Shown here one piece after another: positions 9,642 through 48,098 of a DNA stretch of 64,000 bases. Position numbers and translations under genes: made by a program. The notes under the pieces are model-generated. The model was not told the DNA's origin, did no database searches, and saw only the letters and a program-made list of their open reading frames with translations. The DNA comes from Actinomycetota bacterium. Lineage in GTDB: Bacteria > Actinomycetota > Acidimicrobiia > Acidimicrobiales > UBA10347. Location of the stretch: positions 169,155-233,154 of the forward strand of contig JBCCIC010000007.1 of assembly GCA_039028435.1 (NCBI GenBank), in the 5' to 3' direction. Each line of letters starts with the position of its first letter. Position 1 is the first letter of the stretch.

Positions 9642-10283
9642 ATGACGTCCCTCCTCCTCACCGTCGCCGGGCTCACTGTGGCAGCGCTGATTTCGCCAGG
9701 ACCCAACTTCGTACTCATCACCAGCCGGGCTATGGCCAGCGGGCGACGGCTGGCGATCGCCTCGGCCGGTGGCGTGGCTCTCGGCACGGCGAGTCACGCG
9801 GTGCTCGGGATTGCCGGGTTCGGTGCCCTCCTACGCTCGAACAGCTGGATCTTCACGACGGCCAAGCTGCTCGGCGCCGGCTACCTGTTCTGGATCGGCT
9901 TCAAGAGCCTGCGGTCGGTGTGGCGCACCCGCCGCACCGCGGTCGCTCGTCCCGCCCAGGCGGCGGTGTCATCCGCCGACCAGCTGGGTGTTCGTCGAGC
10001 CGTACTGGACGGCTGGCTCACGCAAATGTCGAACCCCAAGACCACCCTGTTCTTCCTGGCGCTCTTCACGACCGTGGTGCCGACCGACGCATCCGCTGCC
10101 ACCGGCGTTGCCGTGGTCGCAACCATCGTTGGGCTGGCGCTCGTTTGGTACACGGTCGTAGCGACGGCGTTCTCGCTCGCCGCGATGCGAAAGGCGTACC
10201 GCCGAGCCGCCCGCCCGATCGACGTGGTGTTCGGGACGCTGATGATCGCGCTCGGCCTTCGCGTCGCAGCAGTCGACCGCTAG
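9642..10283 (+). CDS. LysE/RhtB family amino-acid efflux translocator
   Basis: The N-terminal ISPGPNFVLI motif and a ~210-aa multi-TM profile are typical of the LysE family. Confidence 0.8.
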   Translation: MTSLLLTVAGLTVAALISPGPNFVLITSRAMASGRRLAIASAGGVALGTASHAVLGIAGFGALLRSNSWIFTTAKLLGAGYLFWIGFKSLRSVWRTRRTAVARPAQAAVSSADQLGVRRAVLDGWLTQMSNPKTTLFFLALFTTVVPTDASAATGVAVVATIVGLALVWYTVVATAFSLAAMRKAYRRAARPIDVVFGTLMIALGLRVAAVDR

Positions 10284-10300: not shown

Positions 10301-10897
10301 CTAGAGGGGTTTCGCCATCAGGATCCACTCGCCGGGATCGTCTGAACCGGGGAATGGGTGGAAGGGGCGTCGCGCTTGCTCGGCGAAGCCGATCCGCTCG
10401 TAGAGGCGGCGGGCATCTTCGTTGAAGCTCCCGACCATCAGCGTGATCGAGTCGCATCCTTCAGCCGCCGCCGAGCGTTCGCCGTGCGCGAGGAGCATCC
10501 GGCCGACGCCTTGGCCTCGGAACTCGGGGTGCGTGGAGGCGACTGCTACGTACCACGACCCCACGACGAGGTCCTTCAGCGCGTTGAGCGGTCGCAGTAC
10601 CTCAGCCGAGCGTTTGGACGGCGGCGGTGGTGCATCGAGCACGCCACTGTTCAGCGCGCCAACGATCAATCCCGCTTGCTCGGCGACCACCCAGTTCGAC
10701 AGGTGGGTGGGGCTGTCCGTGTGGTCGAGGATCAGCGTGCGTCCGACCTCGAGGCTGGACTGGCCGGGCGAAGCGCCTTCGTCCCACAACCAGGACACGA
10801 GGCGACGCGTGGCGGCGTCGGCGAGGATTGCCAGGTGCGAAGCATCCTGAGGCAGCGCATCGCGGATGGTCGTGCTCGCGACCTCATAACTATGCAT
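10301..10897 (-). CDS. GNAT family N-acetyltransferase
   Basis: The acetyl-CoA binding motif is FRGQGVGRMLLAHGERSAAAEG...ARRLYERIGF. The start is uncertain: ATG 10897 is preferred, and the track start at 11020 is the alternative. Confidence 0.75.
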   Translation of the reverse strand: MHSYEVASTTIRDALPQDASHLAILADAATRRLVSWLWDEGASPGQSSLEVGRTLILDHTDSPTHLSNWVVAEQAGLIVGALNSGVLDAPPPPSKRSAEVLRPLNALKDLVVGSWYVAVASTHPEFRGQGVGRMLLAHGERSAAAEGCDSITLMVGSFNEDARRLYERIGFAEQARRPFHPFPGSDDPGEWILMAKPL

Positions 10898-10976
10898 CGC
10901 GCTGCATGCTAATGCATTGAGTGTCCGAGCCAGCCTGATTTCGGCGGTATCGACCAGAGGCCCTGATGACCCGGGC

Positions 10977-11159
10977 TCAGTCGCCTCGTCGCTGGTAGCG
11001 GAAGTCGCAATGGCTCGCACCGGTCATCTTCGTCTGGGTGCGCTCGAGGTCCATGCCGGCCCGCGCCGCCAGGGGGAAGTCCACGTTGCAGACCAGCATC
11101 AGGCCAAGGTCTCTGGCGTCGAGCCGGTACTCATGCCCGGTTCTCCTCGTCCGTTTCAT
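10977..11159 (-). pseudogene. Possible orphan C-terminal fragment (60 codons) resembling the tail of ATC-hydrolase-like proteins
   Basis: The translation ...LGLMLVCNVDFPLAARAGMDLERTQTKMTGASHCDFRYQRRGD resembles, from memory, the C-x2-D...G...CDFR(F/Y) C-terminus of the L-2-amino-thiazoline-4-carboxylate hydrolase family. No upstream remainder exists because the redoxin gene 3' end occupies that space. Confidence 0.3.
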
Positions 11160-12321
11160 GGTCGCTGTCGCGCCGAGCGAGCAGCCTCCGCATGTGGCGC
11201 CCGCCATGCATCTTCTTCCCCCGCATCGATGGACCACCGAAGTCGCCGATGATGGCCGGCTCCACGGTGACCGGAACCTCGAATGGGACCCGCTCGGGAA
11301 GACCGCAGGCGTGGTCGTCGCAGCTCTGGAAGTGCACTGTTGCCCGCACGACCCGCGGACCCAATCCCAGGGTCGACTCGGTGCCGTCCAGACCGCGACC
11401 ATGTCCGCCGAGCACGGTGATCGGTGTGCGGAGGACCACGGCGCCCTCGAACACATGCAGCTCCTCGCCGGTGGCTAGACGGTGCGGCGTCGTTGGCGGG
11501 AACTCGGTTGCCTTGACGACCAACCCATCTTCCTCGTCGAACGTCACGTGGGTCGGGACCAGGCCGGCCGGCACGGGCTCGCCATAGAGATGCTGCCCCT
11601 CCGGCACGGACAGCTCGATCACGAGGTCACGGACGAGGCCTGGCACGAGATGCGGTCCATCGAGAAACGCGCGCACCTCGACCTGTTCGATCGCAACGGT
11701 CGCAGGTTCGGGAACCTCGACCTGCTCGCCGAGAGCTGCCCGCAGCAATCGCTCGGGTCCAGGGCGGAAGATCTGGTTGTTCTCGAAGAACTTGGCGACG
11801 ATCGTGCCGTCGTCGTCGGTCACGTACGCGCCGGGGAACGGCATGCCGTGATACTCGGCTTCCTCTTCGGGGACGAAGGTGTTCAGGATCCCGAATGCAC
11901 GGATGACCGCGGACTCGGGGTCGGCGAGCAGCGGATACTCGATCTCGTGGGCATCGGCGAAGTCGGCCAATGCCTCGGGGTCGTCATAGGAGATCGCGTA
12001 GAGGCGAACGCCTGCCTCGCGCATCGCCTGGTACATCGACTGCAGCTCGACCAGCTGCGACCGACACGGCGGTCACCAGACCGCCGATCGATGGAAGACC
12101 ACGATGGCCGCTTGGCCGGCACGGTCCACCTCGATCTCGAACCGTTGCCCGGCGGTGTCGAGCGCGACGACCGCCGGCAGCCGTTCGCCGACGGCCGGGC
12201 CGGTCGGGAAGTCGCCGACCGGGTCGCGGCGGGGTCCGACGCCCGGGCGGACCGGGCTCAGAAAGCCGTCGGCATCACGCCAGAATGCACCGGCTTCCTC
12301 GGCATGGTCCTGCAGTTCCAT
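11131..12321 (-). CDS. TlpA/Prx-like redoxin fused to a DsbD_N-like domain, with an in-frame TGA at 12073-12075 (candidate selenocysteine, W-U-P-P-C)
   Basis: Track ORFs 12073..12321 and 11131..12036 are in the same frame, separated by only TGA plus 12 codons. The joined sequence reads ...AAIVVFHRSAVW-TGA-PPCRSQLVELQSMYQAMREAGVRLYAISYDD, which is the thioredoxin-fold WCxxC context. The C-terminal part contains FQSCDDHACGLP (DsbD N-terminal-like). Both halves have GC-rich third positions. Confidence 0.55.
12036..12064 (-). promoter_or_regulatory. SECIS-like hairpin immediately downstream of the in-frame TGA
   Basis: On the mRNA, UGA is followed by CCGCCGUG and then the stem UCGGU-C-GCAGCU / AGCUGC-A-GUCGA with apical loop GGUCG. 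The perfect 6-bp upper stem is at 12042-12047/12053-12058 and the loop at 12048-12052. GGUC begins 21 nt after UGA. Confidence 0.45.
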
Positions 12322-12341: not shown

Positions 12342-13565
12342 TCAGCGATCGACGATCACGCGGCCACCCTGGATGACCTGGGTCAGGCTCTCCTCGACCT
12401 CGGAGAAGCCGACGATGTCATCGAGCGGATTGACGGTCGAGACCACGACATCGCCGAAAGCACCCGGTGCCAACACGCCGATCTCGCCTTCGAGGCGGCA
12501 CAGCTTCGCCGTCTCGATCCACATCGATCGCAGGATGTCCTCGGCAGGCTGCACCTGCGCTCGGATCGCCAGCTCGCGCGCTTGCTGCACCTGCGACTCG
12601 CCGAGAAGGTCCGTGCCGTAGGCCAAGGTCACGCCGTGCGAAGCCGCCAGCTCGAGCGAGGCCAGACCCGCTTCCATCACCCGGACGTTCTTGCGCATAT
12701 TGACGTCGGGAAGGCCGAGCTCCTTGCCGAGGGCGTCCATGGCGAAGTACGTCGCCAGCGTCGGCACCATCACTGCACCTTCCGACGCCATCAGCGTCGC
12801 CGTCTCGGCATCGATCAGATTGCCATGCTCGATCGAGTGCACGCCCGCTCGGACGGCCATCTGGATCGCCTCGGGCAGGTACGCATGCGCGGCCACGTAG
12901 GTGCCGCGGTGGTCGCACTCGGTCACGACGGCCTCGAGCTCCTCCCGCGTGTACTGCACCGATTCGAGCGGGTCGCTCGGGCTGGCAACACCACCGGAAA
13001 CATGCACCTTGATGAAGTCGCTGCCGTCCTTGAGATTGAAGCGGGCCGCCTTGCGAACAGCCTCGACGCCGTCAGCGACGATGCTCATGACGTCGGAGTC
13101 CAACTGGCAGCCACACTCGGGAACGACACGCGTATCGCTGTGCATGTCGCCATGCCCACCGGTCTGCGAGAGCATGCGACCAGCCCGCACGATGCGCGGC
13201 CCGACGACGAGGCCCTTGCGGATCGAAGAGATCAGCCCGTAGAGCTCGCCGCCGAGGTCGCGGACCGTCGTGAAGCCACGCTCGACGGTGGCGCGAGCCA
13301 GCGATGCCATGCGCACGCCGAACTCGACCTCGGTCATGCGAGAGAGTGCGCGGAGGTCCATGGTGGCCAGCCGGAAGTGCACGTGGCCGTCGATCAAGCC
13401 GGGCAGCACGTACCGCCCGGCGGCATCGATCACGACGTCGGCCTCGGGGGGCGGGCCGTCATCGACGGACACGATCCGACCGTCCTCGATCACGACATGG
13501 CGCTCACCGAGATACGACATGGATTCCGTGTCGAGGACTGTCCCGTCGGCGATGAGGGTGCGCAT
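12342..13565 (-). CDS. Amidohydrolase family metal-dependent hydrolase
   Basis: The N-terminal DAAGRYVLPGLIDGHVHF motif (HxH) and the ~400-aa TIM-barrel amidohydrolase layout support the call. Confidence 0.8.
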   Translation of the reverse strand: MRTLIADGTVLDTESMSYLGERHVVIEDGRIVSVDDGPPPEADVVIDAAGRYVLPGLIDGHVHFRLATMDLRALSRMTEVEFGVRMASLARATVERGFTTVRDLGGELYGLISSIRKGLVVGPRIVRAGRMLSQTGGHGDMHSDTRVVPECGCQLDSDVMSIVADGVEAVRKAARFNLKDGSDFIKVHVSGGVASPSDPLESVQYTREELEAVVTECDHRGTYVAAHAYLPEAIQMAVRAGVHSIEHGNLIDAETATLMASEGAVMVPTLATYFAMDALGKELGLPDVNMRKNVRVMEAGLASLELAASHGVTLAYGTDLLGESQVQQARELAIRAQVQPAEDILRSMWIETAKLCRLEGEIGVLAPGAFGDVVVSTVNPLDDIVGFSEVEESLTQVIQGGRVIVDR

Positions 13566-19014: not shown

Positions 19015-20163
19015 CTACCGAAGTGGAGCGCGCGGGATCGCCTTGTCCGGGTCGATGAACGGCAGCGAGGTGACCTCGAGCTCCCGGGCGCCTTCTGGCG
19101 TGTCGACGGTCAACGGAGACTCGCCGGAATCGTGGGGCACGTCGAGGAGGGCGAAGCCGATATTGCGTTCGAGGCGGGGGGAGAAGACCGCCGAGGTGAT
19201 CTCGCCGACCTTGCGGTCCTCGGCCGTCACCCGCCATCGGTTCTCGTTGTTCTTGGCAAAGGCACCGCCACTCATGAACACGCCAACCCGTCGACGGGCG
19301 ACGCCGGCGTCGCGGATCGCCTCGAGGGCGGCCTTGCCGATGAACTGGGGTTTGTCCCAGTCGATGAGCCGGTCCATCCCGACCTCGAGCGGGTTCTCGG
19401 CAGCCGTCATGTCACTGCCGAAGTCGAGGACCCCGCCCTCGATACGCCGAATCCGATTGGGAGAGCCGGGGGAGAGCCCGAAGGGGACGCCGGCCTCCAT
19501 GAGGGTCTCCCAGAGCTCATCGCCGCGTTCGTGTCCGAGCAGGTAGACCTCGAAGCCGAGCTCTGAGCTATAGCCGGTGCGTGAGATCACGACGTCGATC
19601 CCGTCGACCGCGCCGTACATCCATCGGTAGTACCGCAGGTCGAGCACCTCGTCGCCGAACACCGCCGACACCACATCGGCCGATCGAGGTCCCTGGATCT
19701 GCAGGGGATACACGTGCGGCGTGGCGATGGTGACGTCGTGGCCGCTGAACGACGACACCCCTTTGGCCCAGAGGTACATGTCGCCGTCGGCGGTCGAGAG
19801 CCAGAAGCGATCGGTGTCCATGCGAAGCATGACCGGGTCGTTGAGGATGCCGCCGTCCTGGTTCGTCATCACGATGTAGCGACACTGACCGACCTCCACC
19901 TTGGAGATGTCGCGCGTGGTCAGCAGGTTCATGAACGCCTCGGCGTCAGGTCCCGCGATCTCCACGCACCGCTGCACGCCGACGTCCCACATGCTGGCGC
20001 GCTCGATGACGTTCCAGTACTCGTTGACCGGCGTGTCGTAGCCCACGGGCATCCACATGTTGTTGTAGGGGTGAAACTCGGTCGCCCCGTACTTGAGGGT
20101 GGAGGCGAAGAAGGGCGACTTGCGGATCCGCGGATTCAGACCGTGTGCTTTCATCGGGCGCAA
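19015..20163 (-). CDS. Aminomethyltransferase (GcvT) family protein, DmdA-like subgroup
   Basis: WDVGVQRCVEIAGPDAEAFMNLLTTRD...GQCRY...GGILNDPV...LQIQGPRS...SRTGYSSELGFEVY is the GcvT fold pattern. Confidence 0.75.
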   Translation of the reverse strand: MRPMKAHGLNPRIRKSPFFASTLKYGATEFHPYNNMWMPVGYDTPVNEYWNVIERASMWDVGVQRCVEIAGPDAEAFMNLLTTRDISKVEVGQCRYIVMTNQDGGILNDPVMLRMDTDRFWLSTADGDMYLWAKGVSSFSGHDVTIATPHVYPLQIQGPRSADVVSAVFGDEVLDLRYYRWMYGAVDGIDVVISRTGYSSELGFEVYLLGHERGDELWETLMEAGVPFGLSPGSPNRIRRIEGGVLDFGSDMTAAENPLEVGMDRLIDWDKPQFIGKAALEAIRDAGVARRRVGVFMSGGAFAKNNENRWRVTAEDRKVGEITSAVFSPRLERNIGFALLDVPHDSGESPLTVDTPEGARELEVTSLPFIDPDKAIPRAPLR

Positions 20164-20272
20164 GTCTGGCTCGGTTGGCTTGGCTTTGCGCGGTCTGTCG
20201 AGCTCGGCTCGGGCCGTCGATGGTCGCCCGGGGTGCCAGTCTCGGCTCGCAGACGACGCCTACGCTCGTGTC

Positions 20273-20605
20273 GTGCTTCGACAGGCTGATCCCACCGACC
20301 TCGAGACCTTGCCGAGTGAGATTCGCGAGCGATTCCCCGAGGTCGTCGAAGACCTCCGCAACGGCGCGATCGACGAGATTCCCGATGCGGTCCTGGACCA
20401 GCTGCCCGATGGCGTGGTCGATCGGATCCCGGAGACTTTGTTGGCCAGCGATGTGAACATCACGCTCGTGGTCGTTCTCGCGGCCGTGGCGCTGTTGTCT
20501 CTGGCCGGGTTTTTCTATGGGGTGACCAAGGCGGCGATGAAGGCCGCACTGTTCTTTCTCGTCGTCGGCGGCATCGCCGCAATCATCCTGTACGTGCAGT
20601 TCTGA
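20273..20605 (+). CDS. Small hypothetical protein with acidic N-terminal region and two C-terminal TM helices
   Basis: An in-frame GTG at 20273 lies downstream of the divergent gene start. The N-terminus has repeated IPDAVLDQLPDGVVDRIPETLL-like segments, followed by LVVVLAAVALLSLAGFF and LFFLVVGGIAAIILYV. Confidence 0.5.
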   Translation: MLRQADPTDLETLPSEIRERFPEVVEDLRNGAIDEIPDAVLDQLPDGVVDRIPETLLASDVNITLVVVLAAVALLSLAGFFYGVTKAAMKAALFFLVVGGIAAIILYVQF

Positions 20606-20773
20606 CCCACTCCGAATCGGGGCGGTAAACGTCGTCGAAACCCCACTATTCCAACGATCATCGGATTGTTCTGTGGCCTACGTCACGTAGACAACACGGA
20701 TGTAATTCGTTACCGTTTTGCCTACGTCCAAGGCGCTGTGGCTCGAATTCCCCCTCGGAGCCCGGCTGCCGGA

Positions 20774-47181: not shown

Positions 47182-47709
47182 GCGCTCAAGTTCAGTCGAT
47201 TAGACCCTGGATTCCAACTCTGGAGGTGGGCTGCGCTGTGAGCCGGTCGTCCATTGAGAAGCAGACGTTGACCTCCATCTTGAGCGTTCTGCGGTGGCAC
47301 GGTGCCCGAGGTACCCCTTCATATCGCTTGCGTCGAGCCTTTCGTGAAGGGCACGCGGCGGCTACCGGCCGCACAGAGTTCGGAAGCGCACGCCTCAGCA
47401 AGGGCCGTAGCGCCGGGGCATGCTCTCAAGATGGCCGATCGCTTCGTTGGTGAGCGCAGCGGCTCGATTTCGTTTCGGAGAGCAAGCCTCCGACTGTTGC
47501 TTCGCCGCCGCGGAAAGCGAGTGGGCAATCGGCGCGTTCCGCACGGTTGTGCTGGCTCAAGAAAGGGCCACCGCAGCCTGGAGAGGCTGTCATCTGCTTG
47601 TCCGAGGACGTGAACGGCTGTCATGGTCGACAGTCGCCGGCGACGCGGAAGGCCGTGCACGGCTGCAAGTCCAACGATCCCGGCGGAATCAGCTAATCGT
47701 GGATGACGG

Positions 47710-48098
<389 letters not shown>

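Follow-up and report, generated by a model that had tools for sequence, protein, structure and literature searches.

The stretch of DNA considered here (the window, 64,000 nucleotides in all) belongs to contig JBCCIC010000007.1 of an Actinomycetota bacterium placed in the Acidimicrobiales. On its minus strand, the frame running from 12321 to 11131 is open throughout, save for one TGA at 12073-12075. The locus most likely holds a single intact gene for a selenoprotein, in which this UGA is very probably decoded as selenocysteine (Sec) with the help of a hairpin resembling the bacterial selenocysteine insertion sequence (SECIS). The features of the gene are the following; alignments A1 and A3 are family alignments.

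11131-12321, minus strand: proposed selenoprotein coding sequence, complete, of 396 codons including Sec83, with an ATG at 12319-12321 and a terminator TGA at 11131-11133
12184-12294, minus strand: conserved N-terminal extension WRDxDGFxxPxxPGxGPRxxPxGxFPTGPxVG, preceding the redox domain and the UGA, kept in loci labelled as several phyla
11794-12192, minus strand: Prx-like/TlpA-like thioredoxin-fold domain, residues 44-176 (Pfam AhpC-TSA and Redoxin)
12073-12075, minus strand: in-frame UGA, codon 83, the proposed Sec83 at the first position of the W-U-P-P-C redox motif
12064-12066, minus strand: Cys86 (TGT), the proposed resolving Cys of UxxC, the TG of its codon being invariant in alignment A3 (columns 13-14)
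12042-12058, minus strand: core of the SECIS-like hairpin in the RNAalifold consensus, with the 5′ arm GCAGCU at 12058-12053, the loop GGUCG at 12052-12048 and the 3′ arm AGCUGC at 12047-12042
12035-12065, minus strand: lower-stem extension GUCGGU/GUCGAU around the core, present in the RNAfold minimum free energy structure of the window only and absent from the RNAalifold consensus
11290-11631, minus strand: DsbD-N-like (nDsbD) immunoglobulin-fold domain, residues 231-344 (Pfam DsbD_N and structure matches)
11305-11322, minus strand: nDsbD-like Cys pair C334 (11320-11322) and C339 (11305-11307) in the motif Q-x-C-D-D-x-x-C-x-x-P
11134-11211, minus strand: C-terminal basic helix (M-H-G-G-R-H-M-R-R-L-L-A-R-R...), from alignment A1 and predicted as helix 179-201 of the C-terminal model

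The peptide around the codon reads ...AAIVVFHRSAVW-TGA-PPCRSQLVELQSMYQ..., giving the motif W-[TGA]-P-P-C. A first-pass annotation, made from the sequence, had described two same-frame open reading frames (ORFs) parted only by this TGA, and re-reading the frame bears this out, the 396 codons being otherwise open. The ORF listing of the window gives two pieces, one of 82 amino acids (12073-12321) and one of 301 (11131-12036). The only identical public sequence is a 4.9-kb contig in the Logan assembly of run SRR22824298, an independent assembly with the same DNA and the same TGA. There the gene calls are exactly the 82- and 301-residue ORFs. Elsewhere in the window TGA is an ordinary terminator: it ends both the selenoprotein gene and the upstream amidohydrolase (stop at 12342-12344). 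A scan of the window for further TGA-bridged coding frames yielded no second credible candidate; the remaining hits resemble either antisense frames or tandem genes that share a frame.

The junction is conserved among relatives. The joined product was compared by tblastn with 80 related loci fetched from a scan of GTDB species genomes, and the matches run from residues 1-16 to about 350-396, spanning the junction. The comparison, which the first-pass annotation had proposed as a check, speaks for the selenoprotein: the frame is kept across the TGA in all 80 loci, and every one of them carries TGA at the aligned codon (81/81 aligned sequences with the window included), within the context RS[AV]VW-TGA-P[PA]CR[ST]QLVEL. 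The nearest genome locus (L001) is 66% identical to the window. The loci, which come from metagenome-assembled genomes (MAGs), are labelled as Acidimicrobiales, Ca. Poriferisodalis, Ca. Multivorans and other Acidobacteriota, Thermoanaerobaculia, Pseudomonadales/Azotimanducaceae, Haliangium, Gemmatimonadota and others. The 81 sequences contain no further stop and no frameshift in the 39 codons before the TGA or the 45 codons behind it. Entropy at third positions reaches 1.53 upstream and 1.26 downstream, while first and second positions show 0.54-0.82. This pattern of substitution indicates purifying selection in one frame on either side of the TGA.

TGA differs from TGC and TGT by one base, which speaks for a pseudogene or for a mistake of sequencing or assembly in such a codon. 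However, the same TGA occurs in the independent Logan assembly and in all 80 related loci, other stops and frameshifts are absent, and the substitutions fall mostly at third positions, so that this explanation is effectively refuted. Since the frame is conserved, other stops are missing and variation is concentrated at third positions, neither decay, nor a sequencing error, nor a pair of independent genes is at all likely.

The active-site peptide and the hairpin are nearly identical in MAGs labelled as several phyla, many of them sponge-associated (Ca. Poriferisodalis, Ca. Multivorans, Azotimanducaceae). One locus (L051) is labelled 'Methanobacteriota archaeon', probably through a binning error. 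The spread of the family across the labelled phyla suggests lateral transfer.

A protein search returned 91 homologs, 86 of which begin downstream of the UGA site, mostly by 2-25 residues. Each of the five that cover the site has Cys there, as W-C-P-Y-C or W-C-A-F-C, which agrees with the earlier placement of the TGA at the first Cys of a WCxxC motif; one of the five (P0065) is labelled Dehalococcoidia and the other four carry no source name. The late starts of the 86 homologs look like truncated gene calls. Together, truncated homologs and a Sec/Cys pair form the usual signature of selenoprotein genes cut by gene callers.

The same records could be taken at face value, with the UGA as a true stop that yields an 82-residue peptide, and a separate protein of about 300 residues made by re-initiation at a downstream Met. 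Automatic annotation does call ORFs of 82 and 301 residues, and 86 of the 91 database entries are of the truncated type. Some truncated product would be expected in any case, since E. coli recodes UGA with only partial efficiency (PMC4513850). Nevertheless, two independent products are most improbable here. The split would cut the thioredoxin fold at the active-site helix and remove its nucleophile, whereas the Cys homologs are single polypeptides. Frame and sequence are kept across the TGA in 81/81 sequences, the hairpin is conserved, and the first downstream Met lies at differing positions among homologs.

Directly 3′ of the UGA lies the candidate SECIS. Its 6-bp helix starts 14 nt after the UGA and its 5-nt loop starts at nt 21. 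The first-pass annotation had drawn this hairpin with a 6-bp upper stem, a GGUC loop and a lower stem; the upper stem and the loop at nt 21 are recovered by RNAfold, but the lower stem falls outside the conserved consensus. That consensus was obtained with RNAalifold from an ungapped alignment of 71 distinct sequences (A3). Conservation of the hairpin in relatives, also proposed as a check, is evident in this alignment, where 99.8% of the cells of the helix form standard pairs; sliding the 3′ arm by 1-3 columns lowers the share to 1-42%. The closing pair (21-37) covaries: it is C-G in 36 sequences, G-C in 35 and broken in none. Pair 24-34 is G-C in 64 sequences, G-U in six and A-U in one. The covariation score is 0.208, compared with 0.078 for shuffles, and 0/500 shuffles reach the observed score. 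The switch of the closing pair couples a synonymous third position (ACC, ACG or TCG) with the first base of a Gln/Glu codon five codons later, and a protein-level constraint would not obviously explain such coupling.

Bacterial SECIS elements have a small apical loop with a conserved guanosine (PMC1088965). In E. coli the loop bases concerned are G and U. The family alignment likewise displays a stem-loop inside the ORF and 3′ of the UGA, a small G-containing loop in which G28 and U29 are invariant, and compensatory pairing. A similarity to the SECIS of E. coli fdhF, pointed out in the first-pass annotation, is confirmed by comparison with the fdhF element itself (TGACACGGCCCATCGGTTGCAGGTCTGCACC..., found in fdhF of 5419/5426 E. 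coli genomes). Both elements lie inside the ORF directly 3′ of the UGA, and a GGUC loop starts at nt 19 in fdhF and at nt 21 in the window. In contrast to fdhF, the stem in the window is a perfect 6 bp with a 5-nt loop, GGUCG, and a lower stem that is not conserved; binding of SelB to it is a prediction.

Indirect evidence for Sec decoding in this lineage comes from related contigs and from published genomes. The machinery was searched for with ARAGORN and Rfam, and by tblastn with E. coli SelA, SelB and SelD on the window and the 80 redoxin loci. The single tblastn match is the selD of an Acidimicrobiales MAG (L002), whose redoxin ortholog is 54% identical to the window protein. This selD, at 19717-20706 on the minus strand, lies about 9 kb from the ortholog and is itself interrupted in frame by a TGA where E. 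coli has Cys17 (LTQFSHGAG-TGA-GCKLAPGEL). Its 20 closest metagenomic relatives (L084-L103; 62-81% identical) without exception have TGA at the same site. As judged from these alignments, the gene and its relatives form a Sec-containing SelD clade, probably of Acidimicrobiales. Neither selA nor selB is adjacent to the closest selD relatives. When ARAGORN was applied to the window, 60 of the 80 redoxin loci and 23 selD loci, tRNA-SeC appeared only in three distant selD loci. These more distant metagenomic loci hold canonical clusters of selD, tRNA-SeC (anticodon tca), selA and selB (L129:245-3488, L152:6313-9523 and L156:1-2028). In Actinomarinales, an order of the class Acidimicrobiia, selA, a divergent selB, selC, selD and a Sec-containing SelD are reported for all 84 complete genomes in a 2026 preprint (bioRxiv 10.64898/2026.04.03.716425). 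The use of Sec in the lineage is therefore supported by a Sec-type selD on a related contig as well as by the published Actinomarinales machinery.

The selD genes have hairpins of their own. In five of them (L098-L102) a second hairpin occurs about 30-46 nt past the TGA, with a stem GGCGCA/UGCGCC and the loop GGUCG, as in the redoxin hairpin; its equivalent in L002 has the loop GUG/CGUGG. The GGUCG loop common to selD and redoxin hairpins might be a shared recognition motif for SelB. A 'tRNA-Arg(cct)' reported by ARAGORN at L085:10040-10127 overlaps the selD UGA and the downstream hairpins, and is probably a false positive from the structured SECIS region.

A different way of reading through the codon would do without selenium. 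Here, a near-cognate tRNA or a mis-charged tRNA(Sec) would supply Cys or Trp, making the product effectively a CxxC or WxxC redoxin. Cys is functional at this position in the Cys forms, and the 64-kb window contains no Sec machinery. Even so, UGA is not reassigned in this organism, since TGA terminates the selenoprotein gene and its neighbour, and selenium-free decoding would leave a conserved hairpin at SECIS spacing unexplained. In L002 the ortholog has a selD of the Sec type linked to it. The retention of TGA in 80/80 relatives, one mutation away from TGC or TGT, implies selection for something beyond Cys. Such readthrough is very unlikely, and decoding of the UGA as Sec by SelB and Sec-tRNA(Sec), through a bacterial-type SECIS hairpin inside the coding sequence, would account for these observations.

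The joined product, searched against Pfam with Cys substituted at codon 83, matches AhpC-TSA (PF00578; residues 44-176) with 89.5 bits against a cutoff of 26 (2e-25), and Redoxin with 3e-15. Residues 231-344 score 27.4 bits with DsbD_N (PF11412), for which the cutoff is 25. None of the NCBIfam models attains its cutoff; those that come closest are ResA, a SelL-related redox protein and thiol peroxidase, each far below threshold. The SelL-related and WAxxUGC families were considered as the identity of the protein and rejected, having weak NCBIfam matches only.

Structure prediction agrees with the two Pfam assignments. AlphaFold2 models were made of the full-length Cys homolog P0065 and of the C-terminal 202 residues of the window protein. 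In the former (pLDDT, the predicted local distance difference test, 90.8; pTM, the predicted template modelling score, 0.87), the N-terminal domain matches peroxiredoxin structures of the BCP/PrxQ/AhpE type with E about 4e-11. The C-terminal model (pLDDT 86.5) has 18 top Foldseek matches in the PDB, comprising 17 nDsbD structures (3pfu, 1l6p, 1jpe, 1vrs, 6dnv and others), from DsbD of E. coli and Neisseria, and the N-terminal domain of ScsB, with E from 9e-6. The earlier reading of FQSCDDHACGLP as part of a DsbD_N-like domain thus holds at both levels. Among PDB sequences, phmmer found nothing that significantly matches the C-terminal half, so the relation to nDsbD is visible only at the level of profile and fold. 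The Gln, both Cys (C334 and C339) and the Pro of the nDsbD-like motif are invariant or nearly so in the family alignments.

The motif W-C-x-x-C is the active-site motif of thioredoxin, TlpA, ResA and CcmG. The active site of the window protein, S79-A-V-W-U83-P-P-C86, is of this type with Sec as its first residue. The peroxiredoxin motif P-x3-T/S-x2-C is absent, as there is no Pro at -7 and Sec replaces Thr. No signal peptide or membrane segment was found: the N-terminus is not hydrophobic, the maximum 19-residue Kyte-Doolittle mean is 1.15, and no membrane-domain Pfam model matches. Because no such segment is detectable, the product is presumably cytoplasmic. The basic C-terminal helix is shared by those truncated homologs that are presumed to be Sec forms, and the Cys forms of alignment A1 lack it. 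Its consensus is M-x-G-x-x-H-[FM]-[QR]-[RK]-[LM]-x-x-R-R, and longer amphipathic basic tails occur in P0067, P0071, P0073 and P0087.

Proteins of this kind have been described before. The first selenoproteome surveys of prokaryotes and of the Sargasso Sea already described Prx-like selenoproteins with a thioredoxin-like UxxC motif (PMC1088965). Prx-like 1 (pfam00578, UxxC) is a major family of the Global Ocean Sampling (GOS) data with 225 sequences (PMC2398784), and current reviews list these selenoproteins as "predicted with high confidence" (PMC13188914, PMC9312934). The first-pass annotation had rightly named Prx-like UxxC proteins as a known bacterial selenoprotein family (PMC1088965, PMC2398784). 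The window protein has the AhpC-TSA domain above threshold and an in-frame UGA at UxxC aligned with Cys. The Prx-like UxxC family, thiol:disulfide oxidoreductase selenoproteins of pfam00578 with UxxC or UxxU, shares with it the Cys homologs and the SECIS-like hairpin that follows the UGA; marine bacteria have the family in abundance, and it is known only from prediction. The likeness is one of domain and motif; the window protein adds a conserved N-terminal extension, the DsbD_N-like domain and the basic C-terminal helix.

The fusion, too, has a precedent. A 2021 study of GOS metagenomes describes, in one sentence and Fig. 2D, a Prx-like protein (U/CxxC) fused with DsbC (Pfam11412) (PMC9402790); PF11412 is the accession named DsbD_N in the Pfam copy used here. 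The GOS fusion is likewise marine and has the same domain pair, the U/CxxC motif and extra conserved Cys in its DsbC part (PMC9402790). Compared by architecture, it and the window protein almost certainly belong to the same family. A term search of the available text finds no mention of Actinobacteria or Acidimicrobiia, and neither a SECIS analysis nor a mechanism for this fusion was noticed, though no search aimed at these was made (PMC9402790). The window gene is a member of a known, already reported selenoprotein family, and not a new kind of system. The first-pass annotation had called Sec use in this lineage, and in such a fusion, notable; this was overstated, given a long-known, abundant marine Prx-like UxxC family and a DsbD_N-type fusion that is already published (PMC1088965, PMC2398784, PMC9402790).

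The nDsbD-like domain invites comparison with the DsbD cascade, in which electrons pass from cDsbD to nDsbD and on to CcmG, TlpA or DsbC (PDB 1VRS, 1Z5Y, 1JZD). These three entries also figure among the Foldseek matches of the C-terminal model. In both cases an nDsbD immunoglobulin fold with a Cys pair occurs with a thioredoxin-fold W-C/U-x-x-C partner. In contrast to DsbD and ScsB, the window protein has neither a central membrane (beta) domain nor periplasmic targeting. Its domains also stand in another order than in DsbD, fused in one soluble chain, and the nucleophile is Sec. E. coli nDsbD uses Cys103 and Cys109 (C-x5-C), whereas the Cys spacing in the window protein is C-x4-C.

By analogy with nDsbD and its thioredoxin-fold partners, a catalytic cycle can be proposed. 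The U83 selenolate would attack a substrate in its oxidised state (a disulfide, or else possibly a peroxide or sulfenate), and C86 would resolve the adduct to give an intramolecular selenosulfide. Reducing equivalents may then be exchanged between the U83/C86 centre and the C334/C339 pair, with a cytoplasmic thioredoxin-type donor as the presumed ultimate source of electrons. In its fullest form, the protein would be a self-contained cytoplasmic selenosulfide/disulfide relay, combining a Sec-containing TlpA-like domain with an nDsbD-like domain that is normally confined to the periplasm, and representing an almost exclusively Sec-containing family spread laterally, with its embedded SECIS, among marine and sponge-associated bacteria from several phyla. 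This fuller proposal is speculative and rather doubtful.

Several points weigh against the selenoprotein interpretation and its mechanistic extension. The 64-kb window contains no homolog of selA, selB or selD, no tRNA-Sec and no tRNA of any type, and the Sec machinery of the window's own genome is inferred from relatives. The hairpin has no Rfam match: neither the whole window nor a permissive scan of 11980-12120 yielded a SECIS or tRNA-Sec. It also lacks the bulged U seen in fdhF. Nor is the window hairpin more stable than dinucleotide shuffles (-19 kcal/mol, z = -0.13; 87/200 shuffles fold at least as well). The criterion of stability is uninformative here because of the GC-rich context, and since a single hairpin cannot be told from shuffles, the comparative data are relied upon; these come from related sequences, and the C-G/G-C covariation may reflect few clade-shared events. 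The comparison of neighbouring genes across loci found no conserved neighbour that would indicate a redox partner. Finally, a relay between the two domains within one molecule is a conjecture by analogy and counts as a weakness. With these points considered, the selenoprotein interpretation put forward by the first-pass annotation remains well supported.

The immediate neighbours in the window are a GNAT acetyltransferase (10301-11020), an amidohydrolase (12342-13565) and a LysE-type exporter (9642-10283). The amidohydrolase shares the strand of the selenoprotein gene, and its stop comes 20 nt before the selenoprotein start. Across loci, no gene is conserved between lineages and the neighbours are lineage-specific, in a comparison with crude ORF calling and antisense artefacts. 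The only Rfam match above gathering score in the window is a bacterial RNase P RNA of class A at 47706-48098 on the minus strand (223 bits).

Because the Prx-like UxxC family and the fusion have both been reported already, knowledge of Sec use is unchanged by this gene. The practical value lies in annotation. The family is stored almost wholly as N-terminally truncated "redoxin domain-containing" or "DsbD domain-containing" entries (86/91), and the active site is consequently missing from nearly every record. The 81 aligned sequences with their UGA and hairpin offer a clean example of a covarying bacterial SECIS from high-GC marine lineages, usable for a covariance model. If the proposed relay were true, it would represent an uncharacterised mode of DsbD-type electron transfer. 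With this gene an Acidimicrobiales genome gains a selenoprotein and, by extension, Sec decoding, and attention is drawn to the combination of a Sec redox centre and an nDsbD-like domain, an uncharacterised pair that poses a moderately interesting question.

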